From: Mustelus asterias
Lineage: Eukaryota
Direction: 5' to 3'
Length of the DNA stretch: 64,000 nt
NCBI RefSeq assembly: GCF_964213995.1
Contig: NC_135813.1
Span: 60,884,001 to 60,948,000, forward strand
Numbering within the stretch: position 1 is the first letter of the stretch; every line of letters begins with the position of its first letter. The notes below the pieces were generated by a model. It worked only from the letters and a program-made list of their open reading frames with translations, did not search any database and was not told the DNA's origin. The position numbers were made by a program, and so were the translations under genes. Shown piece after piece: positions 18,620 to 64,000 of this stretch.

Positions 18620-18851
18620 GTAAGAGGAAGAGTTGGACTGAGGGGTAATTGTATCATTTTTCTATTGGTTCTTCCTGTCACTGAATATGTTAACTAGAGG
18701 TAGGAGCATAATAATGCTGTTATAGGATGTAGCAAGAGGACACATCTGGATCTGATTGTGAACATATTCCTATCAGCCCGAGAGATGCCTGGACCTAATG
18801 TTAATTTAGGGGTTGATACTCCTCGCTGTAGGAGCCATGATTGGCAGAACA

Positions 18852-20239: not shown

Positions 20240-20520
20240 TGTATGGAGGGGTGATTAATTTTTAGGGGCGATTTGTTTTTCCGTGCATGAAGGGAGGGTG
20301 ATTTATCTCTGGGAGGAACTGTTTCTGTGTCTGTGGGGAAGGGTGATTTATCTCTGGGAGGATCTGTTTCACTGACTGCAGGAAAGGGTGAGTTATTTCT
20401 AAGGTGATCTGTTTCTCTGTGTGTGGGGAAGGGTGATTTATCTCTCGGACGAGTTTCCCTTTATCTGAAGGTATAACGTGCCTGTCTCGGGAGTAATTTA
20501 TTCCCTCTGTTTGGGTTAAG
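20240..20520 (+). repeat. 45-bp minisatellite abutting a SEPT5 acceptor
   Basis: GGGTGA units start at 20296, 20341, 20386, 20431 with degenerate copies on both sides. Confidence 0.85.
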
Positions 20521-20638
20521 GTTGCGGCCGCTGGACACAGAGTTCATGAAGGCATTACACCAGAAAGTGAACATTGTGCCAGTGATTGCGAAAGCCGACT
20601 CACTCACACCTATTGAGGTGAAGAAACTCAAAGAGAGG
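20521..20638 (+). CDS. SEPTIN5: Septin-5 exon ([39 protein letters not shown])
   Basis: G4 AKAD motif; weak acceptor ttgggttaag, GTGAGA donor; phase fits. Confidence 0.95.
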
Positions 20639-22069: not shown

Positions 22070-23623
22070 ATTATAGAATCCCTACAGTGCAGAAGGAGGC
22101 CATCTGGCCCATTGAGTCTGCACCGACCACAATCCCACCCAGGCCCTATTCCCGTAACCCCACATATTTACCCTTCTAATCCCCCTGACACTAAGGTCAA
22201 TTTAGCATGGCCAAATAACCTAACCCACACACCTTTGAACTTAAGAACTAGGAGCAGGAGTAGGCCATCTGGCTCGTCGAGTCTGCTCCGCCATTCAATA
22301 AGATCATGCCTGATCTTTTCGTGGACTCAGTTCCACTTACCCGCCCGCTCACCATAGCCCTTAATTCCTTTACTGTTCAAAAATTTATCTATCCTTGCCT
22401 TAAAAACATTCAATGAGGTAGCTCAACTGCTTCACTGGGCAGGGAATTCCACAGATTCACAACCCTTTGTGTGAAGACGTTCCTCCTCAACTTAGTTCTA
22501 AATCTGCTCCCCCTTATTTTGAGGCCAAGTCCCCTAGTTCTAGTTTCATCCGCCAACCTCCCTGCTTCTACCTTATCTATTCCAATCATAATCTTATATG
22601 TTTCTATAAGGTTTCCCCTCATTCTTCTGAATTCCAATGAGTATAGCCCCAGTCTACTCAGCCTCTCCTCATAAGCCAACCATCTGAACTCCGGAATCAA
22701 CCTAGTGAGTCTCCTCTGTACCCCTCCAGTGCCAGTATATCGTTTCTCAAGTAAGGAGACCAAAACTGTATACAGTACTCCAGGTGTGGCCTCACCAGCA
22801 CCTTATACAGCTGCAACATAACCTCGCTGTTTTTAAACTCCATCCCTCTAGCAATGAAGGACAAAATTCCATTTGCCTTCTTAATTACCTGCTGCACCTG
22901 CAAACCAACTCCTTGAGATTCCGGCACAAGGACACTCAGGTCCCTCTGCACAGCAGCATGCTGCAATTTTTTACCATTTAAATAATAGTCCATTTTGCTG
23001 TTATTCCCACCAAAATGGATGACCTCACATTTAACAACATTGTACTCCATCTGCCAGACCCTCGCCCACTCACTTAGACTATCTGTATCCCTTTGCAGAC
23101 TTTCAGCATCCTCTGCACACTTTGCTCTGCCACTCATCTTAGTGTCGTCTGTGAATTTTGACACACTGCGCTTGGTCCCCAACTCCAAATCATCGATGTA
23201 AATCATAAGCAATTGCGGTCCCAACACTGATCCCTGAGGCACACCGCTAGTCACTGATCCCCAACCAGAAAAACACCCATTTACCCCCATTCTTTGCTTT
23301 CTGTTAGTTAACCAATCCTCTATCCATGCTAATAGATTACCTGTAACACCGTGCACCTTTATCTTATGTAGCAATCTTTGGAGCGGCACCTTGTCAAATG
23401 CCTTATGGAAATCCAGACACACCACATCCACAGGTTCCCCATTGTCCACTGCACATGTAATGTTCTCAAAGAACTGTGGGAGGAAATCAGAGCACCTGGA
23501 GGAACCCACATAGACATGGGGAGAATGTGCGAACTCCACACAGACAATGACCCGAGGCCGGAATTGACCCCGCGTCTCTGGCGCTATGAGGCAGCAGTGC
23601 TAACCACTGTGCCACCGTGCTGC
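22070..23623 (-). mobile_element. 5'-truncated CR1 LINE (about 22240-23472) inserted into an HE1-like SINE
   Basis: RT motifs LDFHKAFDKVP, SGVPQGSVLGP, KFTDDTK, LYKVLVRPHLEYC; SINE halves rejoin at gaact|gtgggagg. Confidence 0.9.
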
Positions 23624-24082
23624 CTCATACTCAATATAATCTCCAAGCTCAACATTCTCCAATGTACTCCTGCCCAGCTTCCCCAGCGTGTGTTCCTGCC
23701 CCCCCCTCCCCCCCACCCCCCCAACCCCGCTGGACAAATTCAAAACTCCCGATAGTGTTGTAAGTTGTACCAGCCTAGGGCTTACCAACCTATATACATA
23801 CACAGTCCCACAATCATATTGAAATCTTCATTATTTTGTAGGAATCCCTGATGGCCTTCCCATATCCATCTAATCCCTCCACCATTTCTGCAACATTTTC
23901 AGCTATTGTTCCATTGTTCTCTCTGACTCTGTACATTAGGAGGTCCCTCCTCCTGTTCCAGAATTGGTGACAGGATGTTTTCAGTCATCATGCTTCCAGG
24001 CTCTGGAATTCTCTCCCTCCACTTTTTCTCCTTCCTCTATCTCTTCCCAAAATCTACTCAAAGACAATCTCTTTGATCACAC

Positions 24083-24920
24083 TAAGATGAAAGCAAAATA
24101 CTGCAGATGCTGAACCCCAACACAAACTGGAGGAACAGCACCTCATCTTCCGATTGGGCCTTCTGGACTGAACATTGAGTTCAACAACTTCAGAGGATGA
24201 ACTCTCTCCTCTACTTTCGTCCCATTTCCATTAATTTTATTTCATTTTGTTTCTTCTTTTCATAAGACCATAAAATATAGGAACAGAATTAGGCCATTCG
24301 GCCCATCGAGTCTGCTCCACCATTCAATCATGGCTGATATGATTCTCATCCACATTCTCCTGCCTTATCCCTATAACCTCTGATCCCCTTATTGATCAAG
24401 AATCTATCTATCTCTGTTTTAAAGACACTCAGTGACCTGGCCCCCACAGCCCTCTGTGGCAATGAGTTCCACAGTTCACTACCCTCTGGCTGAAGAAATT
24501 CCTCCTTGTCTCGTTCATCCATTTCTATCCTCCCTCTTTCTCACTTCAATTTTTCCACTTCTCCATTCCAGCTCTCTCTTGTTCCTCCTCCCCCGCCCTC
24601 CTGCCCCCTGCCCCCCACCCCAGGGCAACTGCCTTAACCATCTGTATCTCTGTTCTGCCATTCACACATTCTGATCACATAATGGACACTTTTAGCACCT
24701 TTCTCAGCCTTCTTCATCCTTATTTGCATTCCCTTTGTCTAATTACAGACCCACCTCTCCCCCCCCCCCCCCCCCCCCCCACCCTCATAGTATAAATCTC
24801 TCCTGATTTTCTTTGCTCTTAGCTCTGACTAAGGGTCATCCAGACTTGAAACGTTAACTCTATTCTCTCTCCATAGATGCTGTCAGAAGTGCTGATATTT
24901 TCCACCATTTTCTGCTTTCG
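24083..24920 (+). mobile_element. Penelope-like 3' fragment with short inverted 5' end and a nested CR1 tail (about 24265-24510)
   Basis: KLEEQHLIFRLG..GLNIEFNNFR; mutated hammerhead 24821-24860; 15-bp TSD (14/15) at 24068-24082 and 24921-24935; C22 run at 24759-24780. Confidence 0.75.
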
Positions 24921-25093
24921 TCTCTCTGATCACACAATTGTTTGACACTCTGCCTTTGTGCTTACTCTATCTGTCTCCTCCCCTGAAGCTCATTGACATG
25001 CCTCACTATGATATTGTCATCATGAAGATTGCAGTACAGTAACCAGTTTCTTAATAACTTAATTTTGCCATGTTCATTCTTGTGCCAATGTAG

Positions 25094-25195
25094 ATTAGAG
25101 ATGAAATTGAACAGTACGGAATTAAAATATATCAATTTCCAGAGTGCGACTCAGATGAGGATGATGACTTTAAGCAACAGGACAAGGAACTAAAG
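25094..25195 (+). CDS. SEPTIN5: Septin-5 exon (IRDEIEQYGIKIYQFPECDSDEDDDFKQQDKELK)
   Basis: tgtag / GTGAGA; acidic FPECDSDED motif of the SEPT2 group. Confidence 0.96.
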
Positions 25196-25978
25196 GTGAG
25201 ATGCAATTCCAGGGATGTGGGATGCAAGGGAAGGATAGTTCTGGAAGGAAGGAGTGGAGAGAGGAGATCAAACTGTTGGAATAAATCAGGAGTGGCGTGC
25301 ACTCTGACTCTAATCCTGGTTAAAGACAATGGGATCACATCCAAACCTCAAACTGAGTTGAATATGATCACACTTCAGAACTTTAATTGATTGACCAGTG
25401 CCCAGAATAAAACTTAATGGAATAGAACCTCATCCCAAATGTAATGAGGTGTCTGAAAATCAATAACAATCACAACATTACCTAATAGCCACTGACGAGG
25501 AAAGCCATTTAGTCAATTTTAACTCATCTGTTCAGAAACTATGTGTGTGGTGTTGGCTCACGTCTTGATTGTTATTGGAAGAAGGAATTATCTGCAACTG
25601 AACACAAGAATACAACACAAAGAAATGGAAGCAGGAGAAGGCCACCAGCCCCTTCAAGCCTGCCCCACCATTCAATGAGATCATGGCTGATCTATGCTGG
25701 CCTCCAACTATGGGGCACAGTAGCATGGTGGGGTATTCAACCCGAGATCATCTTTATTTTCTGTCCCTGTTATATTTATTAATTAATCCCGTTAGAGAAA
25801 CTTCATTTTGAAAATTTAATTTGCTGAATTTGGAGCATATCAATTATGGGGGCAGACAGTACTTGAGAAATTATTAGTCAGACATTACGAAATACTTTAG
25901 CCTCTCAGTTCTAGTAATCCTCTTGAATATCAATCAAAGGAATGAACAATGTCAGGAATCTGCTGTCAGTGATGCCAC

Positions 25979-26780
25979 TATTGGTAACACTATTGCCTCT
26001 TGAGTCAAACGTTAGTTGATTCAAGAATTATAGAATTTTTTTTTTATAGAAACCCTACAGTGCAGAAAGAGGCTATTCGGCCCATCGAATCTGCACCGAC
26101 CAAAACCCCACCCAGGCCCACTCATATCCCTCCATATTTTACCCGCTAATCCCTCTAACCTACGCATCCTGGGACACTAAGGGGCAATTTAGCATGGCCA
26201 ATTAACCTAACCCGCACATCTTTGGATTGTGGGAGGAAACCGGAGCACCCGGAGGAAATCCAGGCAGACACAGGGAGAATGTGCAAACTCCACACAGACA
26301 GTGACCCAAGCCGGGAATCGAACCCAGGTCCCTGGAGCTGTGAAGCAGCAGTGCTAACCACTGTGCTACCGTGCCGCCCAAGTTGCAACTCAAGACGTGA
26401 GCATAAAAATCAAAGCTGACACACTAGTGCGGTACTGCGGGAGTGCTGCACTCCCACAGTTGACGTTTTTTGATTAGACATAACACTGAGGACCCATCTG
26501 CCCTCTCAGGTGAAGGTAAAAGATCCACAACACCATTTTGAAGAAAAGTAGAGGAGTTGCCACCCCACCACATCTCCTAACAATATTTATCCCTCAGTCA
26601 ACATAACAACTCGGTCATTAACAAACTGTTGTTTCCGGGAGTTTGCCGTGTGTAAATTGGCTGTTTCATATATAACAACATTTCAAAAGTACTCCATTGG
26701 CTACAAAACACTTTGGGACATTCAGTGGTTTGGAAAGGTGCTGTACAACTGCAAACCTTTTCTTTTTTTCCTCTTTCTTT
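25979..26780 (+). mobile_element. Deu-domain SINE (SacSINE1-like) with a nested HE1-like SINE (about 26026-26378, -)
   Basis: gctgacac..gtgc.gtactg.gggagtgctgcac, ccatctgccctctcaggtg..gtaaaagatcc, caatatttatccctca, tail gaaaggtgctgtacaactgcaaa-(pyrimidine run). Confidence 0.8.
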
Positions 26781-26784
26781 GTAG

Positions 26785-26881
26785 GAGAGCATTCCCTTTG
26801 CTGTCATCGGTAGCAACACGGTGGTGGAGGCACGGGGTCAGAGGGTCCGTGGACGACTGTACCCCTGGGGGATTGTAGAAG
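26785..26881 (+). CDS. SEPTIN5: Septin-5 exon ([32 protein letters not shown])
   Basis: Strong pyrimidine tract plus gtag / GTGAGG; start of septin unique element GRxYPWG. Confidence 0.97.
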
Positions 26882-28926
26882 GTGAGGCTGCTGTGGGAGG
26901 GGAAGTGCAATCTACCTCAAAGTGACTGTTCAAAAAGGGAGAAGATGTGTGAGGCAATTTTTAATAAACTTTAGAACTGTGAGGAGAGCAACGTTTAAGC
27001 AAGACTTTTATTTCTCCTTGAACAGAATTATGTCAGTTTACAAAATTCCGGAAGTTAGAATTGAACAGAAGTGTAAACATCAGTGTGGCATGGCTCTGAA
27101 TGTAAAGATAGATAAAAGAATATTTTCCAGTTCATCTGATATTACACCAGATCCTGTCAGTTCCTTATGTAGAGCTAAGATAAAGAAATGAGAAGATACC
27201 AAGTTGAGTATATGGTATGTGCTCAGTTAGCTGATCGCAGCTGGGACAACCATTAAGTTGGCATAATTGCCCTTAGTGCAAATTTGCTTGGGAAGGCTTG
27301 CAATATTCCTATTCTTTATTGCTGTCCAATGATCCTTGCTGTTGATCTCGGCTAGGGAGTGGGCTACATGGATGGCCCTCCTGCATCTCAGTCGGCCACA
27401 AGATTGAAATCGGGCTTATTCACTAACCATGACCCATGAATAGGATTAAATACATTCAATACATGCCAAATGTTTCATAATGGGTTATATAAAGTGCTTA
27501 CTCCTTTATATTTTAATAGAACTATCAACTTCACATGGTAAAAACAAGAGAAATATTTACGCTTTGGACACGGAGTGCACAGCTCTCACAGCTGATCCAG
27601 GCTTGGGCTGACAAGTGAAAATTAACATTTGCACTAAACAAGTGCCAAGCAATGACCATCTCCCCTTGACACTCAATGGCATTATTGTTGCTGAATTCCC
27701 CCACCACCAACATCCTGGGGTTTACGATTGACCAGAAACTGAAATGGACTAGCCACATAAATACTGTGCTACTAGAACAGCTCAGAAGTTGGGAATCTTC
27801 CTGTGAGTAACTTAGTTCCTTAAACCCCAAAGCCTGTCCACCATCTGCAAGGCACAGGATAAGCATGTGAAAAAATGCTCTCATCTTGCCTTCTTGCTCA
27901 ACATCATCCAGGATAAAATAGCTAGCTTGACTGCCACCTCTTCCATGAACATTCACTCTCTCCATCACCGATGGACAGTAGCAGCAATGTGTACCATTTA
28001 CAAGATGCACTGCAGGAACTCACCAACGCTCTTCCAAACTCACAGTTGCTATCATCTAGAAGGACACGGGCAGCTGACACATGCACCCAGATTGATTTGG
28101 CATTACTAGTTTTATTTATTGTTGCATGGGATTTGGGTTTCACTGGCAAGGCCAGCATTTGTTGCCCAGTTGAACTGACCCTATTGGGTCATTTCGGACG
28201 GCAGTTAAAAGTCAGCTACAATTCTGTGAATCTGGATTCACATGTAGGCCAGACCAGGTAAGGACAACAGCTTTTTTTCCCCTAAAGGGTTATTACTAAA
28301 GGATAGTGAACCAGATGGGTTTTTACAGCAACCGATGATAGTTTCATGCTCACCATTACTGAGACTAGCTTTCAATTCTAGACTTATTAACTGACTTCAA
28401 ATTCCATCAGCAGCCATGGTGGGATTTGAACCCATGTCCCCAGAGCATTAGCCTGGATTACTAGTCCATCTGGAGCGATTAGGTTAAAGTTCAAAGGGTG
28501 GAGTTTCCACTTTGCGATTCTGTTGCAAATTGCAACCTTTTCAAAAATGTTCTTTTTCTCTTGAGTTTTTGCCCTACTTATTTGCATATAACAAATGGAA
28601 AATCTGCATATTGCAATTGAGCAATTTGTTTAAAAATTTGCTGTAAAAATTATTTGTCAATACAATTAATCATGGTAAGTTGGCGCAGTTTGAATAATGC
28701 AGCTGAAAATGTTTGTCACAAAAGTGAATCATTTTTAGTCAATGGTAATTTGCTGGGAATAACCTGATTTTAAATGACTGAAAATGATTTTTAAAAACAT
28801 ACAGAATCACTGTCGTTATATTGTGGCAAAATAGTCAGCTTCTCAGTAAATTCGGATAAAAATACATTCAGAATTTTAAATCATGCCTATTAATGCCCTT
28901 GTGGCCAAAAGAGCCAGTTTAGGTTT

Positions 28927-29236
28927 TCATAGAATCCCCACAGTACAGAAGGAGGCCATTTGGCCCTTCGAGTCTGCACCGACTACAATCCTACCCAGGC
29001 CCTATTCCTATAACCCCACATATTTACCCTGCTAATCCGCTGATACTAGGGTCAATTTAGCATGGCCAATCATTGTAACCCGCACATCTTTAGACTGTGG
29101 GAGGAAACCGGAGCACCCGGAGGAAACCCACACAGACACAGGGGGAATGTGCAAACTCCACACAGACAGTGACTCGAGGCCAGAATTGAACCTGGGTCCC
29201 TGGTGGTGTGAGGCAATGCTTGCTACCGTGCCACCC
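28927..29236 (-). mobile_element. HE1/V-SINE-like SINE; a truncated copy follows at about 29441-29613
   Basis: Family head, core and tail. Confidence 0.8.
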
Positions 29237-30857
29237 TACAGAAGGCTGCAAACAAGTGGAATTAGTGGAAGCTCTGATTGGTGATTAATTCACTCGCAGG
29301 GTGTGACCAGTTCAATAAGCAAGGCAGGTTTAATCTGGTGTAATATTTTTCCACAAACTAGCAGATGAAGGAAATCTGTGCTCAAACTTGCACATTATTT
29401 TGCTGGCTGTGCTGATTTCAGATTGTTAGGGAGAATGAACTCATAGAGTCATTGAATCCCTACTGTGCAGAAGAGGCTATTCGGCCCATCGAGTCTGCAC
29501 TGACTATCTGGCAGAGTATCTTAACCAGGTCCTCTCCTCCACCTTATCCCTGTAACCCCACACATTTCCCATGGCTAATCCACGTAACCTACACATCCTG
29601 GGACACTAAGGGACACTCGGAAGAATCATTCAACACTCAAACCTGATTCAATCGACAAACAGTTTGAGTTACACCAGCGGGGAGAAACCACAGGGGCTGA
29701 CCGTGCGCAAATCATCAATTTCTCAACAGTTACTCAGCCCATCCCGGCTGGTCACAATCCAATCATAATGGTTATAGATGACATGTATATTACATATAGG
29801 TCCAATGAAATTAGTACCGAGGCTGTGTGATCAGCTCATGGACAGTTCTGGACCATCCCACGGCATTTACCCGGCACATGTTAATGGTCCCTGAACCTCC
29901 AAAATGAATCTCTCAGGACATTCTTATCTCTGACTTCTCTGTACTGCTAGCAGTCTCACAAAGCATTTGCCTGTGTGCTGATACAAGAGGCCCTGCTACG
30001 CAAGTTGAATGGCCCATGACTTTGTCTTTAATGACTCAATAGCTGTAGGAAGGTGGTCAAGTCAGTTAGCTAGCTAACCCCATGATGCTTCTCAAACTGT
30101 TATACTCCATTTTGATTAGTATCGTACATGGCTAGAATGAAGTTGAATATAATCATGTGTATTGCAGGTGCCTTTGCTTCAGGCCTACCTCAACACAGAT
30201 GAATTGCGCTAAAGAAACCTGCATAGTTGAGTGAAACCTCACTCCAGCTCTGAATTCACCCTTGAAATCCAGAGGGATATTTGAACTAAATGAGCTGTGG
30301 CACCGTCATAGGATTAACCACCTTATAATTTTTAAAAATTCATTTGTGGGACATGGATGTCGCTGGCTGGCCAGCATTTATTGTCGACCCCTAGCTGCCC
30401 GTGGGCAGTTAAGAGTCACCCACATTGCTGTGGCTCTGGAGTCACATGTAGGCCAAACCAGGTAAGGACTGCAGATTTCCTTCCCTAAAGGACATTAGTG
30501 AACCAGATGTGTTTTTCTGACGATTGACAATAGTTTCATGGTCATCAATAGATTCATAATTCAGATTTTTTTTATTGAATTCAAATTTCGACATCTGCTG
30601 TGGTGGGATTCGAACCTGGGTCCCCAGAACATTAGCTGAGTTTCTGGATTAATAGTCTAGCGGTAATATCACTATGCCATCGCCTCCCTGAGCTGGTAGA
30701 AAATTACTATCGTGAATGGTACATCCAGGTTGTGGTTTGCTAATCCTTCCATTTCTTCTCATATTCTCCAAAGGAAGAGTGAATGCATGCACACACAACA
30801 ACTAGCTTGGGAATGCAAGCAATCAGTGAAGGTTTAATTTTTGTTTTATGTTGACAG

Positions 30858-30993
30858 TGGAGAATCAGGCACATTGTGACTTCGTAAAACTGAGGAACAT
30901 GCTGATCCGAACACACATGCAGGACCTGAAGGATGTGACCTGGGACATTCACTATGAAAATTTCAGAGCCAGGTGCATTCAGGAGATGACCAG
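30858..30993 (+). CDS. SEPTIN5: Septin-5 exon ([45 protein letters not shown])
   Basis: ttgacag / GTCTGT; [16 protein letters not shown] is SEPT5-like. Confidence 0.96.
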
Positions 30994-31649
30994 GTCTGTT
31001 TTTTTTATCTTTCTTGCACTCACCTTCTTGTAGGAAACTCGATCTGACAACTGAGCATTATCCTTTGAATGAGTGCTATTGCAGGCAGTGTGGTGGCAAA
31101 GCATATTCCACCATCAGTACACAGGCCTGATTGAGGGACGCAGGCATCCCATCTCCCAGGTAACTGTTGACATCACTCTGCTGTGTTGCAGATCTTGGAA
31201 ACAATTCATTGTCGAAAGGTGCCAAAAATGATCATTATGAGGGAAAGCAAATCTAAGGGATATTTGTTGTTGGACAGTTTGTGTGTCACTATTGACTGGT
31301 GGCTAATGAGCTGCAATTGGCTAAAAGCGCTCAATCCTCATCTCTGTTGCAATAGTAACATGATGGCAAAGGTCCTGTGGCCTCTGTGTAGAAGTGGATG
31401 CAATTATGCAAGTCATGTTCAGCATTACAAATTGATTACTCATTACATTTTAGGGCCCATATCTTTGAGGGGAACAAATTCTCACGGTGGAATCGGTTTA
31501 TTTTGTAATTATATATTTCAAAAAAGCAAGGAGGCCATTCAGCCCATTATAAACTGTCACTTCAGTATTTCAGCTCTCCCAGCCTAGCAGCCATAACATA
31601 GGCATAATTCAGTAGAGTTCCTGGAGAAATTATGAACATGGTCATTATG

Positions 31650-51507: not shown

Positions 51508-52095
51508 ATGTCACTGCTGAGACACAAAGGAGTTCTCCTTGTGTTTCTGTCCTTAGTCCAAGTGGCGGCTTTCCAATGCTCGCAAACATGTAACTGTTCC
51601 CGGACCTCTATGGACTGCAGCGATCGGGACCTGGATGAGAGCACAGTGCCCAAGCACATTGAGGCCGCCATTACCGTCATCAAATTGAACAACAACAGAT
51701 TATCTTCCATCCCCAATGGCCTCTTTGACAACCTGCAAAACCTGAGATCAGTTACATTGGAAAATAACCCATGGGTATGCGATTGCAACATTTTGTACCT
51801 GAGATCCTGGCTTCTCAAACAGGAAGTTCGAACCCAGTACAAGAACCTAAGGTGCTCGTCGCCGGCGGAGCTCCAGGGGAGGCTGATCTTATATCTAACG
51901 GAGAATGAAGTTGCCTCCAGTTGCAAGGATTGGTATTGTGACATGGCTTTGATGTGCCAGATCGGGCTTTTCGTCTTCATTATCATTCAGGCCATTCTTC
52001 TGATACTTGTAATAATATTTCTGAGAAGATTTGAAACATTTTCGAAGGAGGCAATCCGAGCTCCCAAAGAAGATCATTTTCGGAATGCGATGTGA
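51508..52095 (+). CDS. GP1BB: Platelet/thrombocyte glycoprotein Ib beta chain (195 aa)
   Basis: Signal peptide, LRRNT CxxxCxCx6C, one LRR, LRRCT NPWVCDC..LRSWL..Y.NLRC..PAELQGRLILYL, juxtamembrane Cys, TM helix, LRR stop-transfer; directly downstream of SEPT5 as in mammals. Confidence 0.93.
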   Translation: MSLLRHKGVLLVFLSLVQVAAFQCSQTCNCSRTSMDCSDRDLDESTVPKHIEAAITVIKLNNNRLSSIPNGLFDNLQNLRSVTLENNPWVCDCNILYLRSWLLKQEVRTQYKNLRCSSPAELQGRLILYLTENEVASSCKDWYCDMALMCQIGLFVFIIIQAILLILVIIFLRRFETFSKEAIRAPKEDHFRNAM

Positions 52096-52529
52096 AGAGG
52101 ACTTGTTCTGCCGGTCCAAAACCCTCCAGAGTCCAACGGGGAAAGTTGTTTGTCAGGCATTCACTAGTTGACATTTTAGCAGTGTCACAAATAATGACAG
52201 TGACTGCTTTGCAAACATTCCGGGCTGTCACTATCCCTTCTCCAGCAGCTCCACCAAGCTCATTCAGGGAAACTCCGGGAAACTGTTTTATTCTGCCCTG
52301 CATTTTGCACAAACGATGAATCTGTGATCGATTAGCGAGCCTTTGTACATTTTGTCTTGGTTAAGATTTACTAACGGCGACACTATCTGAAGTTGTGACT
52401 TAATACAGTTAAGAAAAAAATATTTAAGACGGAACCCCATTTCATTAATTCGACAGTTTGGGGAGGTTGAATGGGAAGTTTAGTGTAAATAATACAAATA
52501 CGTTTAGGTACTGGCAGCTACATCAAGAT

Positions 52530-52691
52530 AAGAGCAAATTACTGCGGATGCTGGACTCTGAAACCAAAAGAGAAAATGCTGGAAAATCTCAGCAGGTCTG
52601 GCAGCATCTGTAAGGAGAGAAAAGAGCTGACGTTTCGAATCCAGATGATCCTTTGTCATCTTTGACTCTTTACTCTCCTGACAGTTGCTGC
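52530..52691. mobile_element. Inverted Penelope-like terminal fragment about 430 bp downstream of the GP1BB stop
   Basis: Perfect 15-bp TSD CAGCTACATCAAGAT (52515-52529 and 52692-52706); internal inversion. Confidence 0.8.
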
Positions 52692-54699
52692 CAGCTACAT
52701 CAAGATCACGGAGAATGCGCCAGAGCATCTGTCGACACCCATCAGAATATGTACCCAGAGCCGCAGCAATGACGATCTTTGATAACGGAGGAAAAATATT
52801 TCTAACGAAGGAGGGTTGTCTATATGTTAATGTCCCCAAAGCTTTCAAGTGTTGTTTACAACACGGTTGGTAATGGTAATATTCTGAAATGTACACTGTA
52901 ATTCTGTATTCCGATTGCTTTCTGATATACAGTTTAACCCAGAAAAAACTCTGCCACTGTAATACTGAATATATTTGTGTTTTTCCTAATGTAGATTCTG
53001 TTGAGCAATTACTAATATCGGTGCTTTCGTAGCGGCTATATCATTGGAATTATTACTGGGAAATATGTGATGGCAGTAATTGTAACGCGAGGAAATTAAT
53101 TAAAATTTCCGTTTATCGCGTCCTGCTTTGTGATGTTCCGAAGTGTCAATGCGAAAGATCAATGTGTAAAATGATCGAACGAGATTAAATTACATTACAT
53201 TTAGAAGCGAAGATAGATCTTTATTCATAGATATGGGTGGAGAAGGAAGCCTGTCTGAATCTCTCCTTCTGCAACAGATACACGCTGAACACATGACTTC
53301 CATATTTCGTACAGGGAAGTTTTGGCTGTCTTGGGAATACTTCGTTTTGCACTGAAGCCACCCATCACCCAGGGCATAACAGTGCGATGAGATCGCTGTC
53401 ACAATATTTATCCATTTTCACTTCACTTGGATATTCGATTCGTTTGATATATTATGCTTTTTATGCGTTTAGTTTAACTAGCGTCACCGTCACTTGTGGA
53501 AGTTATTTGGAAGATAGTTCGTGTTCAGTTAAAATTGCGCCACAGCGACACTTGTTGGTGACTGAAGGAAAACCTGGGGCTCCCAGCCACGGTGACCGGA
53601 AGCAAAATTGTCCACTGTCCTTATAGCTACAGGAAGCATGGTTACTCAGCGAAATGAATGAAAATAAAATAGAACACAGATACTAAGAGATAATGGTAGG
53701 TGGAGATTAAGTAAGTATAATGCAATCATATATTGGGATTTAAAATAAGCCCTCAAACTCCGTGGCATTTGAAGTTGATTAATATTGATTATGGTTGCTG
53801 TATTGAATGTGATGGGGGGTGCCGTGATATAGAGGCGGCTTCTAATCAAGGCATAAACGAGACAATATAATTCTGAAGTATACCTGTAAAATTTAGAATC
53901 ATCTTCTGTAATGTGTAAAGTCTTGCTTGTGCTGAATAAAGTTTAATCGCCACATTAAACCAATTGATGTCATTGTCGAATCACTGGAAACCAAAATGTA
54001 AAATAAATGAACACAGCGAAATTTCATTAGTGGCAATTGTACCGTTACTGGGACTCATTTTTTTTCAGAAATATATGAGCTAAGAAGATGTCCACACCTT
54101 CTGACATGGAAAAGGGGGCAATGACACATTCTTAATAAGAAATTCAATGTGAAGGAGATGATGGCATCAGAAAATAATGAATAAACAGAGAAATTTCATC
54201 GAAATGCCCTAGTCTGATGTAGGCTATCACAGGCAATGTGCCAGGAGCTGAGGACTTGAAAGGAACTTCTAAAGTAATTAATTAGAAGTTGCGATAAATA
54301 TTGGAAGCATTGCTGTCAGAAAATAACCCGTGCATTCGACTCTAATCAATTCGTGGTTAATCTCGATTGTTTGCTTTTGTGTTCAGTTTTGAATTAAATG
54401 ATTCATATTGAATTGACAATCACAGCCGAGGTCGCTCTGTTCGGTCCCTCGTCAGCTCTTGATTCTCCACCACAGCCTAGCGTGTCTATGTTATGTAAAT
54501 AGGAAACGATTCTATCAGATTCTAAGTAGTCATTTTGGAAACACAACTGATACCCAATTTCTCACGAAAACCCGATTCCAACAAATAACGTTTGTTATTG
54601 TAAATAATTGCTACGGTAAACCATGGAGTTATTATTGACTTCATTGAATTAAATTACCATTCACGTCACATAAACACAGTGGCTACAATAGCAAATCAG

Positions 54700-56030
54700 A
54701 AGCGAGGAACCTGGTGAGTAACTCACCTCCTGACTCTCCAAAGCCTGTCCACCATCTACAAGGCACAGGTCAGGAGTGTAATGGAATACCCCTCAGTTGC
54801 TTGGATGAGTGCAGCTCCAACAACACTCAAGAAGCTTGACACCATCCAGGACAAAGCAGCCCGCTTGATTGGCATTATATCCGCAAACATTCACTCCCTC
54901 CACCACTGACTCTCAGTAGCCGCAGTGTGTACTATTTGCAAGATGTACTGCAGAAATTCAGCAAAGATCCTTAGACAGTACCTTCCAAACCCATGACCAC
55001 ATCCAGCTAGAAGGACAAGGGCAGCAGATACATGGGAACCCCACCACCTGCAAGTTCCCCTCCAAGCCACTCGTCATCCTGACTTCGAAATGTATCACCG
55101 TTCCTTCGCAGTCGCTACGTTAAAATCCTGGAATTCCCTCCCGAAAGGCATTGTGGGTCAACCCACAGCACATGAACTGCATTGTTTCAAGAAGGCAGCT
55201 CACCACCACCTTCTCAAAGGCAACTAGGAACGGCCAACGAATGCTGGCCAGTAAGCAACTCCAATGCCCCACGAATTTTGGTAGAACTAACGTCGGGGGG
55301 AGCTGTACGATAAATGGTAGAACCATAAAGGGTGTCGATACGCAGAGGGATCTGGGTGTGTAAGTCCACAGATCCTTGAAGGTGACGTCACAGGTGGAGA
55401 AGGTAGTGAATAAGGCATATGGCATACTTGCCTTTATAGGACGGGGCATAGAGTATAAAAGTTGGGGTCTGATGTTGCAGTTGTATAGAACGTTGGTTCG
55501 GCCGCATTTGGAATACTGCGCCCAGTTCTGGTCGCCACACTACCGGAAGGACGTGGAGGCTTTAGAGAGAGTGCAGAGGAGGTTTACCAGGATGTTGCCT
55601 GGTATGCAAGGGCTTAGTTATGAGAAGAGATTGGGTAAACTGGGGTTGTTCTCACTGGAAAGACGGAGGATGAGGGGTGTATAAAATTATGAAAGGCATA
55701 GATAGGGTGAACGGTGGGAAGCTTTTTCCCAGATCGGTGGTGACGTTCACGAGGGGTCATAGGTTCAAGGTGAGGGAGGGGGGGGGGGGAGGTTTAACAC
55801 GGATATCAGAAGGACGTATTTTACACAGAGGGTGGTGGGGGCCTGGAATGCGCTGCCGGGCAAGGTGGTGGAGGCGGACACACTGGGAACATTTAAGACT
55901 TATCTAGATAGCCACATGAATGGAGTGGGAATGGAGGGATACAAAAGGATGGTCTAGTTTGGACCAGGGAGCGGCGCGGGCTTGGAGGGCTGAAGGGCCT
56001 GTTCCTGTGCTGTACTGTTCTTTGTTCTTT
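54700..56030 (+). mobile_element. CR1/L2-group LINE 3' end followed by a CR1 3' fragment (about 55272-56030)
   Basis: HLLTLQSLSTIYKAQVRSVMEY..; LYRTLVRPHLEYCAQFWSPHYRKDVEALERVQRRFTRMLPG. Confidence 0.85.
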
Positions 56031-56413
56031 GAATGAATACAAAATCTTTTCAGGTTATTGCTAAGCAGATGGGGGAATGGCTTAGAGGTGTTGGCAACAT
56101 CTAAATACCGAAGATTCTCCCGTTTCCAGCTCTTTCTCTGGCATCACCTCAGTATTTTGGATTGGGTCATGTAACTGCACATCTTCTTGCTCTACTTGAC
56201 TCCTAGTATCCTGAAGCGTGCAATTGGCAAATTCAGGAGACATTTCTAGATATAACTAACTGCTGTTCTGTATGTGGACCTAACAAAAGACTTTTTCCCG
56301 AAATGCTGCTGAGTTCATGAGCTTATCCACATGGATAATGTCTATAATGCTGTGCCATGCTGTCAACTCATGACATCAGCATTTTACCACTAAATGGGAA
56401 TACCTGCTGTTGC

Positions 56414-57856
56414 CCTCTTTTCAGGTCAAACCAAATAAACAAACTCAGATTAAGTCAGGACAAAGTAAAAAGGGGCAGCTCCCCAAAAGGAGGGGGGAAC
56501 AGCCCGAACAAAAGTCAAAGTACAAAGGAAACTTAAAAACATCAGATTAAAATGTGATTGTCAGGGTTAATAACGCACCCCAACCCCTGTGGTGCCCAAC
56601 GAGCGTGGAAGGCATCAACCGCGCCCGTGGACACCGCATGCTCCCTCACCAGGGACACCTGGCCGCGAACATAGCTGCGGTAGAGGGGCAGACAGTCAGG
56701 ATGGATGGCCCCCTCGATCGCCCGCTGCCTGGACCAGTAAATGGCGCATTTCGCCAGGCCCAGGAGCAGGTTCACGAGGAGGTCGCCATCCCAACCCTCC
56801 TCTCTCCGCACCGGGTGTCCGTAGATCAGGAGTGTGGGAAGTGCAAACAAAACATCAATAAAAGGTTCTTTAGGAAAACAAAAAGGGAGTGCAGCCTAAG
56901 ACACACAACATAGACATGGTCCACGGACTCCACAAGGCCACAGAAAGGGCAGTCTTCGGAGCTTGTGAACCAGTGAATCCTACGGTTGTGCGGCACTGCT
57001 GCAGGCATCACCCTCCACCCCAGGTCCCTGACATAATTGGGGGAGATCCCTCCGTAGAGGGACCTCCAGCGGGGACCTCCGCCGCCCGGCGGCAACAAGG
57101 CCCGCCAAGGTGTATCCGGGCGACATGCGAGGAGGCGGTAGTGGAAGGTGTGCAGCAGCAGCCCACACAGGAAACGCCTCCGCGTGGTAGACAAAGGCAC
57201 AGAGGATATTTCCGCGAGGCGGCTCAGGCTGTGGGGCACCTGACCCGAGGAGGGGGTTTGAGGTTTTGTGCCAATGTGGAATTCCGTCCAAACAGGGGAA
57301 TGCTAGGGCAGGATCCCACCGCACGCCTGCACCGCCTCGAGTTTGCGTGCAGTTTCGGGGCCCAGCACGACCGTCCTAAGGTCTAGGATAGCTTTGGCTG
57401 CGTGCCGGACGGCCGTCCCCGCGCGCTGAGCCAGCACGTGGGGACTCATCCAGCCCGCCCCTCCGCCATCGAGCACGTCCCCGATTCTGGTCACCCCGGC
57501 GTCCACAGCCCTCCTCTCCGCCAGCCACCTGAAGTCATACGGCTGGAGGAGCGGATTCCTGAGCAGCGGCTCTTGCACGAGAGCCGCTACTCCTGACAGG
57601 GGGGGGGAGCTGCATCGCGAGGCGACCGTGTTCCAGACAGTGAGGAGGTCCTGGTAAAAGACGGGCAACTCCTGCAGGGCGGTCGAAACACGCCCCAGAT
57701 CGATATGCAGGAGCAGCACATCATATTTGAGGCCACTGGCGGAAGAAATACGCCGCCATGGCACACCATTGTGGAGGGGGCTCAACGTAAAGGTACCTCT
57801 GCAGGGCCTGGAGGCGGAAGGTCGCTATCTGAGTGCGAAGGCACACCAGACCTTGA
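56414..57856 (-). mobile_element. 5'-truncated Tx1-clade (L1-like) LINE
   Basis: LPVFYQDLL.VW..EPL..NP, DLGWRV.., CPFCGLVESVDHVYVVC knuckle, LVNLLLGLAK.AI..SR; 15-bp TSD AATACCTGCTGTTGC (56399-56413 and 57857-57871). Confidence 0.88.
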
Positions 57857-58074
57857 AATACCTGCTGTTGCGGCTAAGTGTTTTTGTCTATTTAGGATCC
57901 ATCACCAACAACTGAAGATGCCATTGGGATGTAGAAATTGTTCTCAACAAACAAGGGGGGCAGAAAAGGATCAGGCAAACATACAAAGAAACGTTCGCCC
58001 GAATAGTAACAAAAAGGGATCAGATCGAGGCCAGGTTATCAAAAGTGTTAATGGTAATCAATAATTGGCCGACA

Positions 58075-58212
58075 AGCTTTCGGAGCGCTGCTCCTTCATC
58101 AGGTGAGCGCTCCGAAAGCTCGCGATTCCAAATAAAGCTGTTGGACTTTAATCTAGTGTTGTGAGACTTCTTACGGTGCCCACCGCAGTTCAACGCCGGT
58201 ATCTCCACTTCA
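58075..58212. mobile_element. Head-to-head Penelope-like pLTR fragments with hammerhead core on - strand
   Basis: 15-bp perfect inverted repeat 58075-58089 / 58106-58120; remainder homologous to 5990-6096. Confidence 0.8.
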
Positions 58213-58539
58213 GGACAGACTTTGTGACTGGTATGAATGCAAAACATCACGGTGGATTCCTGGACTGGTTTCAGTTGGAGGTGTCAGTGAAAATTCAATT
58301 ACATTCAGTCTAAGCTGCCGCACGTAAGGACTTGATTCGATGTTAAGACCAAGGATTAAATGAATCGAATTGGACTGAAAAACCAACTCTGACAACCTGG
58401 GAATTGGAGCTATCTGGACACTCATTATGGAGGCCGTCATATTTTGGCCCCGTACTTGCGACACCAGGTGACTTAATAAAAAAATGATCACGACATTTTG
58501 TTTTACTTATTGTCAGAAAAATATTTGTCAGATTTTTTC

Positions 58540-59720
58540 CTACGCTTTTGACATAAATGATTTGGACTCGGAAATCGGAAGTACAATTTCAACATTTGTG
58601 GATGACAACGAATTGGGGCATTTCGTTAATATTGAGAAGACTGCGACAAAATACACGAAAACCTTAATAAACTTGTAGAATGGGCATAAAAAAGGCTGAA
58701 TGAATTTTCATACAAATAAACGTGAGATGGTTGGAGAAATAAAGAGGCTACACAGTCGTGGAAAATAAGAGCTTAAAGAACCATGGGACTGATGGGTGTA
58801 TATTGATATAGGAACATAGGAACGAGGAACAGGCATAGGCTGTGCTATCCTTTGAGCCTGCTCCGATATTCAATTAAATCTTGGCTGATCTACTTCAACG
58901 CTATTTTTCCACACGACCCCATATTATTTTTATATTTAATAATTAAGATTCTATCAGTCTACATCTGGAACACACTCAATGACTGGGCCTCCGAAGCCCA
59001 TTGGATGGAGAATTCCATGATTCACCACATTCTGAGTGAAGAGATTTCTCTTATCTCAGTCCTGAGTGGCCTGCTTCTAATTCTGATTCTGTGGCCCAGA
59101 GCTAGGGGAAACATCCTTCCTGCATTTATCCTATTGAGGCTTGTGATACTTTTGTTGTGCCTCAATGAGTTAATCTCTCATTCTTTTAAATTCAAGAGAA
59201 TACAGACCAAATGCCCTCAATCTCCGCCATCCCAGGAATCAGTCTGGTGAACATTTGTTGCACTGTCTAAGACAAGTATACACTTCCCACATTACTAAAT
59301 GTAGCAATATAAATAACCAAGAGGTTAAAATATGAACTCTGAATTGAGGTTCATTTTTGGAAGCATATAATTAAGAAAAGCAGGAAAGCTAACCGAACCT
59401 TGTGCAGAATGTTGGTTAGACGACATTTTAGCGAACTATGCACAAGTCTGTTCTCCATATATGGAAGAGGACGCAGAGGGGAATGTGTTAGAAGGATTTA
59501 CTGTCATGATACCGCAACTGAGAGGTTGTGACTATCTGAAAGACTGAGCAGTCTTTTATCTTCTAGCGTGACCTGGTAACAAGGTGTATTAAATCGTAGC
59601 TTCAGAGAAGACTGCTACATTTGTGGGGAATACAATATTCAGTGTTATAAAATGATTGTCACCAACTAGTCCAGTAAAGAATTCAGAAATCTACTACATG
59701 CCCAGTGAGTGGTTATAATG
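58540..59720. mobile_element. Old CR1 (+) with a nested CR1 3' end (-, about 58808-59280)
   Basis: INDLDSEIGSTISTFVDD; CR1 tail ataggaacatagg in reverse. Confidence 0.65.
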
Positions 59721-59929
59721 TTGAACGTGTGACCAAGTGGCATTGCCCAGTTCAGCAGAATGTCTTGTATCTGTGCTGTAACTTCAATATAATTGTGCAA
59801 GAATTAAATCTACAGTTTGTCACAGGAAATAAATCCTCACTATTTAATCGAGTTTATTTTGTTGTTCTGGATTGGTACAGAGGAACCCGAATTTTTTTTT
59901 AGCTGCGCCTGAGATAATACAGTTATATA

Positions 59930-59935
59930 TTTATT
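59930..59935 (-). terminator. Probable IgL polyadenylation signal (AATAAA on - strand)
   Basis: TTTATT on + about 200 nt past the C-exon stop; a second copy at 59853. Confidence 0.55.
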
Positions 59936-60132
59936 ACGCTGCAGTATTGTAACGTTACATTGAAGTTCAGGGAGAACAGGGGTTAAGATTGAGTCATTGG
60001 GATCCAAACTGAACATCTGCTATGATTTGAAATGTTCCTTTTAAAATGAAAAATGCGATATCTGAGGACGGACTTTACTTTTGAAAAGCATTTAACTAAT
60101 ACTACAACAGATCAATACGAACGAGTCATGAA

Positions 60133-60455
60133 TCAGATACAGCTGGATCTAGAGATGCTTGTTTGAAGCGGGTTCGCTTGAGTCTCGTGTTTGACCAGAC
60201 AGGAGTAAAGCTCGTGTGAGTTCCACTCTGAGGCTGACAGAGTCAGATAACTGCTCACACTGAACGTATTGTCCGCCTCCTGCTGGACCCGACTGGTCTC
60301 AACCCCATTCCCTCTGACGCTGCCATCGACAGTCCATTCAATCTCCGCTGCTCCCGGGTTAAAACCGCTCACCAAACACACCAGGGTCGCCGTGTCCTTT
60401 TCCGCGATTTGAGTCGGTGAAGGCCGAAGGACCGACACCCTGGGGGCCCGTGGAT
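60133..60455 (-). CDS. IGLC: Immunoglobulin light-chain constant exon, shark lambda/type II-like
   Basis: Acceptor ttttgctttccag (phase 1); xPRAPRVSVLRPS...TATLVCLVSGFNPG..IEWTVDG...TFSVSSYLTL..SEWNSHELYSCLVKHE...SRSSCI*; C1-set Cys/Trp/Cys plus penultimate interchain Cys. Isotype assignment is from recall. Confidence 0.92.
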
Positions 60456-62371
60456 CTGGAAAGCAAAAGCATACGTAAGAGTGAGGGAAAGTTCACACAC
60501 CGTCGCATGTGAAGAGTCGGACGTCAGAGTATTGTTTTTCCGCTCTTTTTTCATTCAGTTGCTGTGCAAAACGGATCAGAAATATTTATCAATGGAGGTG
60601 AACAACCTTACTAAACATATGTAGCCGCGTTCGTCCCGAAAGTTGAAAATATAAATAGAGAAAATAACTTTAAGGAACTAATGGAAAGTAAAATAATTTC
60701 TCTGCAAAAATACTAGTCTCATAGCAATGCGTGTTTGGCAATGTTGTAGATTGTTTAATTGTTTAATTCAAATAACGATACTTTGAACAATCTCCAAAAT
60801 TAGCTATGTGATAAACAGTGTGAAATCAATGCTTCCAGAGTGATTTTTGAAAGGCCGGTTATTATTTTGAGACACAATAAAGTAATAAATAATCAGCTCT
60901 ACAGATTCATTCAAGTGCATTTTCTAATTGATCCCGGAGTGGATTTCCTTTAGAGCACAAGTGATCCCTTTTAATTGCATCAGTAGATCGACGAAGCAGT
61001 TCTGTCAATTTGAACAAATTCCTTGGAGCATTCCCCGAGCTTCCACGGTTAGTTCGGAAACAATTCTTCGATTTAAAAGGCGTGAATTGAGAATTAAAAC
61101 CATTGATTAACACAATGCAGATGTCGAATTTGATCGGATTCAATTCATCACAACACCAAAAGAAGAATCACTTGATGCAAGAGATCCCCAGACTCGGAAT
61201 AGATCTAATCTAAATTCTATCGTAGATTTATACACATTAGAACACACAGTGAGACTTGCATAAATGCCAGTTTTTCGACTACCGCAATGTATTTAATTTA
61301 TTTAGTCCAAATTTTCTCATTCGTCTTAGATTGATATATAACAAAAGGAACAAATAATTCCAGACGAATTTGTCGATGTTACTTGGATAAAACAAGTACT
61401 GAGATCGTGAAATGATTCCTGCAAAAATATAAATTTGTTTAAGTAATTGCAGACTGGAATCGCTGCTTTTGTGAGCAATTTTCACAATATTCCTTGAATC
61501 AAGTTGTAAACCTTTAACTAATATTTTATGGCCTGAATTCTTATCGTCCCCAGCCATTCGGCTTGAATCGCCCTAGCTACAGCTTTTGTGTTCCATCTGA
61601 CTGCAGTTAACCATAAAAGCTTGAAAACAATACCGGAATAAGATGTCATGCCCAGATCATGTGAACAGTATGTCCTCCAGTGTCAATGGTTAAAACAGTT
61701 TCAAACAAAAATTACTTGTCCCTTGGCAAACTATCTGTTCAAATTATGATGCTCCCCAAATCAATTACATTAATAATTCGTGTCGTGTTATAAATAAAGC
61801 TTCCTGTGATACCAATTCTAAAATACAAAGATGTCTAAGAATGACAAGCTGCCACAACCAGGGGTCTTTTAAAAGGCGCTTGTTTCTTTGTATTACTACG
61901 TGTAGTAACATGGACTACATCCTCTGGAAACTGTCAATCAAGCATTGTAATAATAACCAAATGGATTTATCATTACTAAAAGCACAAAAAGACGGATTAT
62001 ACACTCCTTGAATGGTATAGTGAGATGGCTGTCTCCAGTTCTGTGGAAGTAGGTTGTTACGTTCGCGCTGTAATTCACGGTCAGCAGTAATAGCTACTTA
62101 GGAAGAATAATTTTCGCAACCGCCGTCTTTCAGGCAAATTGCCAACGCGATTTAATTAACCCCCAAGTATTGCGTTGGTTACTATGACGCCAACATCAAA
62201 ATCAGCTTCCCAAAATGCAAAGAACAATTTGATCGAAATCTAGAAGCCTCACTAAGAACATTGCAACTTGATGTATCCCCGTTGCATTCTATCATAGACG
62301 CTAAAATTACAGGAACATTCTAGACACATGTCGGGAAAAATGGAATGACAGGGATTTGCAAACTTGACAAA

Positions 62372-62658
62372 TGGGCGGCAGGGTAGCCCAGTGGTTAGCA
62401 CTGCTGCCTCACAGCGCCAGGGACCCGGGTTCGATTCCCGATTTGGGTCATTGCCTGTGTGGAGTCTGCACGTTCTCCCCGTGTTTGCGTGGGTTTTTTC
62501 CAGGTGCTCTGGTGTCCTCCCACATTCTGAAAGATGTGCTGGTTAAGTGCATTAACCCGAACAGGCGCCGGAGTGTGGCGACTAGAGGAATTTTGCAGTA
62601 ACTTCATTGCAATGTTAATGTAAGCCTTACTTGTGACTAATAAATGAACTTTACTTTA
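62372..62658 (+). mobile_element. HE1-like SINE with alternative tail, in the presumed IgL J-C intron
   Basis: Head GGGCGGCAGGGTAG..GGTTCGATTCC; CpGs retained. Confidence 0.85.
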
Positions 62659-63289
62659 CAAAAGGTGCAGTTTGGTAAAGGAATCCCTGGAATCTCGAAG
62701 AAATACTGCTCGCCTCTCATTTGATATACACCTTGAGTGAATTGAATTTGTGTGGAATATAACAGCGGGACCGCTGGAAATCTCACATAACGACATCTCT
62801 GTTTTAGTCGTCGGATTCTAGACGACTTGGTCATAATATAGCAAAACAGCTCATTTAAAATGCGGGACAGAATATCTTTAGTGATGTGACTGGTATTTTC
62901 CTAACGTGTACATTGCATTGGAGTAAGCAGAACTACAGAATAAACTATCTAAGCAATCATCTATATACGGCAAGGAGATATGATAACATAATTCAAGGCG
63001 TTATTTATAAAAAATATATCGAATTGGTAAGCAGGGAAAAGGATTAAGGATGTTAGGTATCTTCATCAGAAAACTAGCATAAGTTTATAAAACACGAATA
63101 TATCCAATTTCCCTACAGATGCTGCAGGAACAGTTAAGAGTTTCCAGCAATTTCTATTGGTATTTAATATTTCTAATTTTAAACATTATTTTGTTTTTTT
63201 GGATTTAAATTTAAAGCTCTGTGTGGTATTAAAATATATACACCGTAACATCGCAGGTTATCACACGGTACACAACTCGATAATCTCAT

Positions 63290-63640
63290 TTGGAATAGAT
63301 GGCAATCTCTTCAACCTGAGACAACTGAAATACTCACCTGAAGTTTCATAGGTGATGATAATGGAATTGCTATTTACCGATGTTTGTGCCCTTGTGCCCT
63401 ACTTTGAGCATGGCCTCAAATCATAGATTGTTTTTCAAAAACAACTGACGGCCATAGTCTAATCGTCGCCTTACGGAAGGCAGAGATACTCCACCAACCA
63501 CTGCCACCTCTGACTATCCACCAGCTAATCTGTCAATGACACAACTCTGAAGGTTCAGATAACTTTACCTTTCTCGGAAGCACAATCCCCAGAGATTGCT
63601 GCATTGACAGTGAGGTGGCAAATAATTACTGGTTAGTAAT
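63290..63640 (+). mobile_element. RTE-clade RT remnant
   Basis: DGNLFNLRQLK...ELLFTDVCALV (decayed FADD). Confidence 0.65.
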
Positions 63641-64000
63641 GCTGCAACTGCATGTTTATTATAAACATCGTGGGTTAATGTGAATTGTCGGCTGCGAATC
63701 GTGTACTCTATTGGACGCCCATGCTTGATTTAGAGTCGAATTGATCATAGTTGCTGTGTATCCTACTTGCACGGCTGGATGCCAGGGTAAATTGCTCCCC
63801 GGAGTCGGAAGCCGACTCGATTTTAGGCCGATTGATTAATTTGGGAATTTGCACTTTATATTTTAAATCCTCTCAGCATGGGGGCAAACGACACGGGAGC
63901 AAGTCAATCCAAACAAAGAGGCCCACACGCTTCTCTTTGTGTTAGGATCCATCGTAAGTACTGACTGATGCTGATTAGCGAGCAAATTGTTTTTGCGTCT

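Follow-up and report, generated by a model that had tools for sequence, protein, structure and literature searches.

We analysed a 64,000-nucleotide stretch of the genome of the shark Mustelus asterias (C13:60,884,001-60,948,000, C13 being the chromosome that carries it; hereafter the window), in which a constant (C) exon of an immunoglobulin (Ig) light chain of the type II/lambda group stands close to GP1BB. In the textbook view, shark lambda is an antibody chain without any rearrangement, and the polarity of its recombination signals, which defines lambda elsewhere, was hence unreadable. Our reading, to which we give a probability of about 0.75, is that this exon belongs to the first of about 22 clusters after GP1BB (array B), that a second array (array A) lies across the adjoining HIRA-to-GP1BB gene block, and that the last cluster of array B is split, with signals of 23- and 12-bp spacers (23/12), likely rearranges somatically, and likely preserves an ancestral rearranging lambda gene.

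In the split cluster, the variable (V) and joining (J) segments are 254 bp apart and their recombination signals face each other. The V signal consists of a heptamer matching at six of seven positions, a 23-bp spacer, and a nonamer matching at seven of nine, and the J signal consists of a nonamer (8/9), a 12-bp spacer, and a perfect heptamer (7/7). The J segment ends in a GT donor, the C exon is open, and an octamer with one mismatch is located 110 bp upstream of the ATG. V and J are not joined in the germline, as they are in shark type II/lambda, and the 23-bp spacer is on V and the 12-bp spacer on J, as in lambda, instead of the 12-bp spacer on V of kappa and sigma. The same genome provides an internal control: the V genes on C8 and C26, which we take to be kappa and sigma, carry 12-bp spacers (the labels of C8 and C26, like those of C373 and C2496 below, are our assignments from signal polarity, tree, and general resemblance). 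The split cluster is the only facing 23/12 pair in 1,070,000 contiguous bases of C13, where seven single signal-like motifs were also found. Among the 22 V regions of the arrays, 19 run in frame into a J, one is truncated, one is decayed, and one ends in a recombination signal; the premise of an earlier reading of this DNA from its letters alone (the sequence-only reading), that all type II genes are germline-joined, fails for this one cluster.

The split gene is single-copy in the assembly: the next best protein is 51% identical, and protein and DNA searches of 5,313 contigs returned no second copy. Its V is 41-51% identical to the other V genes of C13, and a search with it for near-length homologues gave zero matches. 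In the NCBI model of the gene (XP_078083771), V and J are linked by residues translated across the J heptamer, and this link is an annotation artefact. No target-site duplication was seen flanking the signals; for this reason, re-insertion of signals into a joined gene was judged unlikely.

Four of 22 listed sequencing runs, all 22 without RNA on record, were examined, and a V-J joint is present in three of the four. In two runs from one sample of the same species (X3 and X4), the contigs are spliced at the leader intron (GT..AG) and show zero differences from the genome over leader, V, and J; in both, V1750 is connected to J2009 through a single intervening base, which is not the same in the two runs. 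In a run from another species, guessed to be RNA (X16), two bases separate V1747 from J2007, and the contig extends into the C exon. The three joints are all in frame, lack the whole spacer, and differ from one another, and each gives a third complementarity-determining region (CDR3) of 10 residues. In addition, X3 holds an unjoined contig crossing the V signal, and a DNA run of a third species (X5) contains V, spacer, and J together with both signal regions in overlapping pieces, one of which shows a single difference over 125 bases that include the J signal. Such joints would be expected if, during B-cell development, RAG cut at both signals and the trimmed ends were then ligated, with the addition or later mutation of one or two bases, leaving a CDR3 of 10 residues.

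Support for the lambda identity of the locus comes from signal polarity, the lengths of the CDRs, position, and exclusion rather than from a strong clade. In the V tree (72 rows and 94 columns, with 15 of the 23 own V regions after near-duplicates were thinned and a hand-picked subset of search matches), a kappa clade (100/97) excludes every C13 V and, among the shark's own V genes, holds only the C8 V; sigma and sigma-2 are placed apart from the C13 V genes. Three V genes of array A fall with lambda/VpreB-type V of lungfish and tetrapods (94/80, unstarred), lambda V is paraphyletic to kappa, and the split V forms a clade of its own reaching back to chimaera (92/98). The C tree places the split C together with those of two joined clusters of array A that have lambda-like V genes (99/97). 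Where a PDB match of the split V carries an isotype name, it is mostly lambda-6, and the CDR1 of 8 and CDR2 of 3 residues of this V, counted by eye with IMGT positions, fall inside the lambda ranges of 3-9 and 3-7 residues given in the accessible part of PMC5985310. An improbable alternative is that the split cluster rearranges but is the missing lambda-2 isotype of cartilaginous fish, standing beside the true lambda. Lambda-2 also has 23/12 signals and one or two genes per genome, the split V is distant from the other C13 V genes and has its own clade back to chimaera, and the same part of PMC5985310 predicts that lambda-2 could survive in unstudied cartilaginous fish. However, it gives lambda-2 a CDR1 of 5-7 residues against the 8 found here, the split C joins array-A clusters with lambda-like V genes, and the split cluster is situated inside the lambda array, on the chromosome of IFT81 (the marker of true lambda in sturgeon and gar), though IFT81 is 46 Mb away.

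Several points weigh against the split cluster as a somatically rearranging, ancestral lambda gene. Only three joints are at hand, taken from assembled contigs instead of raw reads and from two samples; splicing is the sole sign that X3 and X4 are RNA, and their sample possibly comes from a different animal than the assembly. The base that differs between X3 and X4 could reflect hypermutation of one joint, nontemplated (N) addition being indistinguishable from hypermutation. There may also be a joined allele in the X3/X4 sample, or a joined gene in the species of X16. The alternative built on this, that the joined transcripts come from a germline-joined allele or from a paralogue missing from the assembly while the split copy is a silent relic, draws on the coexistence of joined and split copies for nurse-shark kappa (PMC2193156, in the part available) and on the single dominant junction of each run. 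We consider it unlikely: X3 and X4 match the split gene exactly yet differ mutually at the joint, the contig search found no second copy, neither the two signals nor the splice sites and frames are damaged, and the spacer is retained in a third species. As for the isotype, in the V tree neither the split lineage nor classical type II falls inside a lambda clade, both standing at an open fork at the base, and the C tree (50 rows) unites all C13 C domains only at 90/86, apart from lungfish and lizard lambda; both trees were built without a teleost lambda-2 or nurse-shark NS3 reference. Approximately unbiased (AU) tests on 24 of the C-tree rows rejected one of six alternatives (type II with kappa, p 0.047), the others giving p 0.18-0.23; poor resolution of C domains is also described in the accessible part of PMC5985310. 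SMARCB1, a neighbour of lambda in tetrapods, is unlinked, at the very end of C16 (L059, C16:103.44-103.47 Mb). Finally, the apparent germline-joined state of the orthologues of the split gene in carpet sharks, sevengill, and chimaera is read from predicted proteins instead of DNA.

These orthologues, with V domains 60-78% identical to the split V, come from Hemiscyllium, Chiloscyllium, Stegostoma, Rhincodon, Heptranchias, and Callorhinchus. Their CDR3 has 10 residues (11 in Callorhinchus) and the heptamer read-through is absent; the CDR3s are common to species in two carpet-shark paralogue groups, and two GenBank proteins of Callorhinchus have the same CDR3. In the C tree, the split gene falls within this set of orthologues: its sister group is the carpet sharks (99/94), and sevengill and chimaera branch outside them. 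Under the assumption made by PMC2193156, in the part available, that joining is one-way, this requires either a split ancestor and joining more than once, or differential loss of split and joined paralogues. Because the orthologues look joined in other lineages, RAG activity in germ cells would on more than one occasion have turned split genes into joined lambda clusters. We lean slightly towards the wider proposal that this is the first RAG-rearranging Ig lambda in cartilaginous fish, a single ancient cluster that is orthologous from chimaera to ground sharks, split here and joined several times elsewhere, and that it dates lambda polarity to the jawed-vertebrate ancestor and anchors type II to tetrapod IGL by position. 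No report of a split shark lambda or of GP1BB-lambda linkage was found in the titles and abstract openings searched; an earlier description is possible, the key shark IgL papers being outside that search.

We found 28 close relatives of the window's C exon on C13 (150 of 727 candidates were scored), all confirmed in contiguous DNA and arranged in two arrays: array A at 60.058-60.173 Mb with six and array B at 60.944-61.418 Mb with 22. The further clusters that were sought beyond the window are thus present. The arrays bracket a 770-kb block of HIRA, UFD1, CDC45, a septin gene, and GP1BB in human order; most of this block was located by family search instead of from continuous sequence, and a stricter CDC45 search returned two exons only. 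HIRA is on the minus strand, with its 3' end toward array A. Because GP1BB is at the inner edge of one of two arrays bracketing this block, it is the inner boundary of that array and not the outer edge of the locus. Array A includes two intact germline-joined clusters in divergent orientation (L040:2768-7261 and L039:4701-8195, C13:60.150-60.173 Mb), whose V groups with tetrapod lambda-5/VpreB-type V and whose C groups with that of the split cluster. In array B, about ten near-identical clusters stand head to tail with a 19-20 kb period at C13:60.97-61.16 Mb (L003-L027), differing mainly in the CDRs; beyond this stretch, orientations are mixed and orphan C exons occur distally.

The same chromosome carries, on the proximal side, ESS2 (51.83 Mb), a DER1-family gene (52.13 Mb), MIF/DDT (55.30 and 56.23 Mb, within 4-5 Mb of the arrays), and TOP3B (58.96-58.98 Mb, 1.1 Mb from array A). 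A search for Yippee gave zero matches on C13. Two genes of the HES type, with basic helix-loop-helix (bHLH) and orange domains, face each other just proximal to array A (L090:8978-9782, 59.94 Mb, and L099:5399-5725, 60.03 Mb), and a codon-score exon search of the flanks, in which 113 of 277 candidates were scanned, recovered only these two genes, a long interspersed element (LINE), and HIRA. In tetrapods, lambda is anchored between MIF and TOP3B, with HIRA among the neighbours in some species, according to the accessible part of PMC9614664. From the signal polarity together with the linkage to TOP3B, MIF, and HIRA, and not from GP1BB alone, we infer that the shark locus is orthologous to tetrapod IGL; the positional support for type II as lambda that the sequence-only reading had looked for is borne out by TOP3B, MIF/DDT, and HIRA near the arrays. 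In mouse, Igl presumably lies within about 0.1 Mb of Hira, which would match the neighbourhood of array A and HIRA.

Distal to array B, a V-set gene at 61.428 Mb is followed by a LIM-domain gene at 61.49-61.52 Mb, which we take to be paxillin by general similarity. The V-set gene (L061:8874-9293, C13:61.428 Mb, plus strand) is located 10 kb past the C exon of the split cluster. Its single-exon domain of VJ type bears a leader-like N-terminus and a J-like strand with GxG. At 27% identity it is no light-chain V, and its PDB matches are weak ones to antibody V. It may resemble NKp30/CD28-type genes. Further along C13 are TANGO2 (87.2 Mb), TBX1 (88.04 Mb), and IFT81 (107.26 Mb). TBX1, together with TANGO2 and on the opposite strand, is about 27 Mb from GP1BB, and is parted from it by a rearrangement of that size. 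T-box matches at C13:55.5 and 94.0 Mb were rejected as TBX1 in favour of that at 88.04 Mb; they belong to two divergent T-box genes (L021-L022, C13:55.51 Mb, and L024-L025, C13:94.04 Mb) that look unlike TBX1, TBX3, and TBX5, and the former is presumably TBX6/TBX16-like. GP1BB adjoins TBX1 in human and mouse by comparison of gene positions, and the mouse order is Tbx1-Gp1bb-Sept5-Cdc45-Hira, with Hira ending at 18.97 Mb (PMC4487986, supplement, as far as available). In zebrafish, gp1bb, sept5a, and cdc45 are on chromosome 8 and tbx1 is on chromosome 5, so the GP1BB-TBX1 change may have gone in either direction. In sharks, the genes of the 22q11 deletion form two blocks, HIRA-to-GP1BB and TBX1-TANGO2. 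The sequence-only reading had suggested that GP1BB may mark the edge of the lambda locus of ancestral gnathostomes and that TBX1 was separated from it by Ig clusters or a rearrangement. The adjacency itself is real, and accession numbers of GP1BB and lambda models are neighbouring in three other sharks, but a second array lies 770 kb away on the other side, the V-set and LIM-domain genes instead of TBX1 follow array B, and the GP1BB-TBX1 pair is kept in human and mouse; an outer edge and a displacement of TBX1 by Ig clusters are both contradicted, and we hold that version very unlikely.

Judged by equal lengths of the longest contig, GP1BB and a lambda model are on one chromosome in all seven other sharks checked (Hemiscyllium, two Chiloscyllium, Stegostoma, Rhincodon, Heptranchias, and Cetorhinus; Callorhinchus, with no length given for GP1BB, was left out of the count). 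Their accessions are near each other in three of eight comparisons (XP_060700049/050; GCC28657 vs GCC28660-61; XP_067861657-61 vs 670) and 119-1057 apart in the other five; in Mustelus asterias itself, GP1BB and the split gene are 784 apart. RefSeq accession distance is not positional, and weak evidence was drawn solely from the numbering of the GenBank draft and from the two RefSeq pairs with very close numbers. The comparison with other sharks that had been called for thus finds the linkage recurring, and a misjoin between GP1BB and the Ig exon is unlikely because of this recurrence. Fragments of LINEs and short interspersed elements (SINEs) do lie in the 8-kb interval, where continuity rests on the assembly; there is no N in the window or in the contiguous 705-kb block around it, however, and with the shared chromosome and the near-consecutive models of three sharks, we regard a misjoin as extremely improbable.

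Within the window (Table 1), the convergence of GP1BB on the plus strand and a light-chain C exon on the minus strand was confirmed with exact coordinates, the two being 8,038 bp apart from stop to stop (~8.0 kb). An AG acceptor precedes the GP1BB open reading frame (ORF). Among natural proteins in the PDB, GP1b-beta matches it best over the full length (E 8e-31), while one designed leucine-rich-repeat (LRR) protein scores higher through its repeats; those homologues that bear names are GP1BB, and the rest are unnamed or hypothetical. GP9 and a variable lymphocyte receptor (VLR) were ruled out for this LRR ORF by the PDB match and the named homologues. The C exon, with its acceptor at 60455 and stop at 60133, matches Pfam C1-set (E 1e-24). 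Between the two genes are retroelement fragments at 56500-57900 (minus strand) and 54700-55990, including a GC-rich degenerate LINE end. Upstream of GP1BB, seven exon-bearing ORF segments at 4.6-31 kb form a plus-strand septin gene, the Pfam Septin domain being matched by all three that were scanned. The family and strand named by the sequence-only reading stand; the label SEPT5 is one that we assume from general similarity and the position beside GP1BB and CDC45, and a PDB search with the gene did not return a Septin-5 chain.

Table 1. Positions of the features described (window coordinates unless an L or C13 coordinate is given; parts of the split cluster are numbered along L038).
Feature	Position	Strand	Remarks
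Septin gene	4562..31030	+	Span of ORF segments with the seven exons found; 3' exons left unmapped
GP1BB main coding exon, 195 aa	51508..52095	+	AG acceptor, PDB match, named homologues
Two polyadenylation-signal hexamers 3' of the C exon	59853..59935	-	Hexamers at 59853 and 59930
Ig light-chain C exon, classical type II/lambda group, first cluster of array B	60133..60455	-	
J-C intron of the window cluster	60456..64000	-	Continues past the window end to the VJ exon
Split cluster	L038:1212-8577 (C13:61.410-61.418 Mb)		Most distal of array B, ~470 kb from the window cluster
Split cluster, leader	1212-1260		
Split cluster, V	1443-1751		
Split cluster, V signal	1752-1790		
Split cluster, J signal	1978-2005		
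Split cluster, J	2006-2044		
Split cluster, C	8249-8577		

The cluster to which the window's C exon belongs continues past the window end with a VJ exon (L001:211-540), a leader (L001:680-728), and an octamer (L001:857), all 0.2-0.9 kb beyond. The octamer is perfect and the VJ exon is open and germline-joined, so that the order on the minus strand is octamer, leader, VJ exon, and C exon. Judged by this sequence, it is an ordinary pre-joined type II/lambda cluster that should need no recombination, and the assignment of the C exon to type II/lambda was upheld once its leader and joined VJ were found just past 64 kb. Near 63340 in the window, a possible J donor was discarded, FGxG being absent in every frame and the true VJ lying beyond 64000. 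The germline CDR3 of this cluster has 5 residues and an extra cysteine, compared with roughly 8-12 residues in neighbouring clusters. Its relative in the basking shark is auto-named lambda-1-like; it presumably resembles nurse shark NS3/type II, for which the searches returned no named NS3 record.

Elsewhere in the genome, three divergent sigma-2-like C genes were observed on separate contigs: L057 (C75:17.33 Mb), with a frameshifted joined VJ; L058 (C373), with a joined VJ; and L078 (C2496), with no V found in 30 kb. A small contig (C3106) carries copies of a DER1-family gene and of SNF5, the latter apparently without introns.

A split, expressed 23/12 cluster would supply the lambda polarity of sharks directly and show that joining is derived. 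A gene that one shark lineage keeps split and others have joined would form a natural pair that dates germline RAG events and allows expression order and isotype exclusion to be compared between rearranging and pre-joined lambda. The gene map also speaks, by position, for type II as lambda. In other work, as far as the available parts of these sources go, IgH and some IgL genes are placed near TCR alpha-delta (PMC12227049), a chimaera lambda cluster shares a scaffold with genes of paralogon 9 of the major histocompatibility complex (MHC) (PMC10751288), and the light-chain types of fish are left unseparated (PMC13320880).

According to the accessible parts of two reviews (PMC5192425 and PMC4279169), all lambda genes of cartilaginous fish are joined in the germline in those species that were examined. 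The type II/lambda genes of sharks, such as nurse shark NS3, form multiple pre-joined miniclusters of leader, VJ, and C, and the window cluster and 19 of the 22 V regions are alike in this; unlike them, one Mustelus asterias cluster is split, with intact 23/12 signals and joints of somatic type. In the case of the sterlet, IgL3/lambda is a single rearranging 23/12 V-J-C cluster next to IFT81, which is on the same shark chromosome as the arrays; however, the accessible part of PMC5985310 describes sterlet lambda as free of junctional variability, compared with three different joints in the shark, where IFT81 is far from the arrays. Nurse shark kappa NS4 shows the same mix of split and joined clusters in one isotype, the joined ones being derived by germ-cell RAG activity, but there the polarity is 12/23 and most clusters are split, whereas the shark lambda described here is 23/12 with one of 22 split (PMC2193156, in the part available). 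Ray-finned fish lambda-2 is similar in its 23/12 signals and low copy number, and differs in its shorter CDR1 and in the place of the shark gene within a lambda array. Tetrapod IGL, situated between the MIF-VPREB3 block and TOP3B in the available text of PMC9614664, has the same 23/12 polarity, and MIF/DDT, a DER1-family gene, TOP3B, and HIRA are near the arrays on the same shark chromosome; it is a translocon instead of a series of miniclusters, the shark TOP3B is 1.1 Mb off, SMARCB1 is elsewhere, and in human and mouse GP1BB is beside TBX1.

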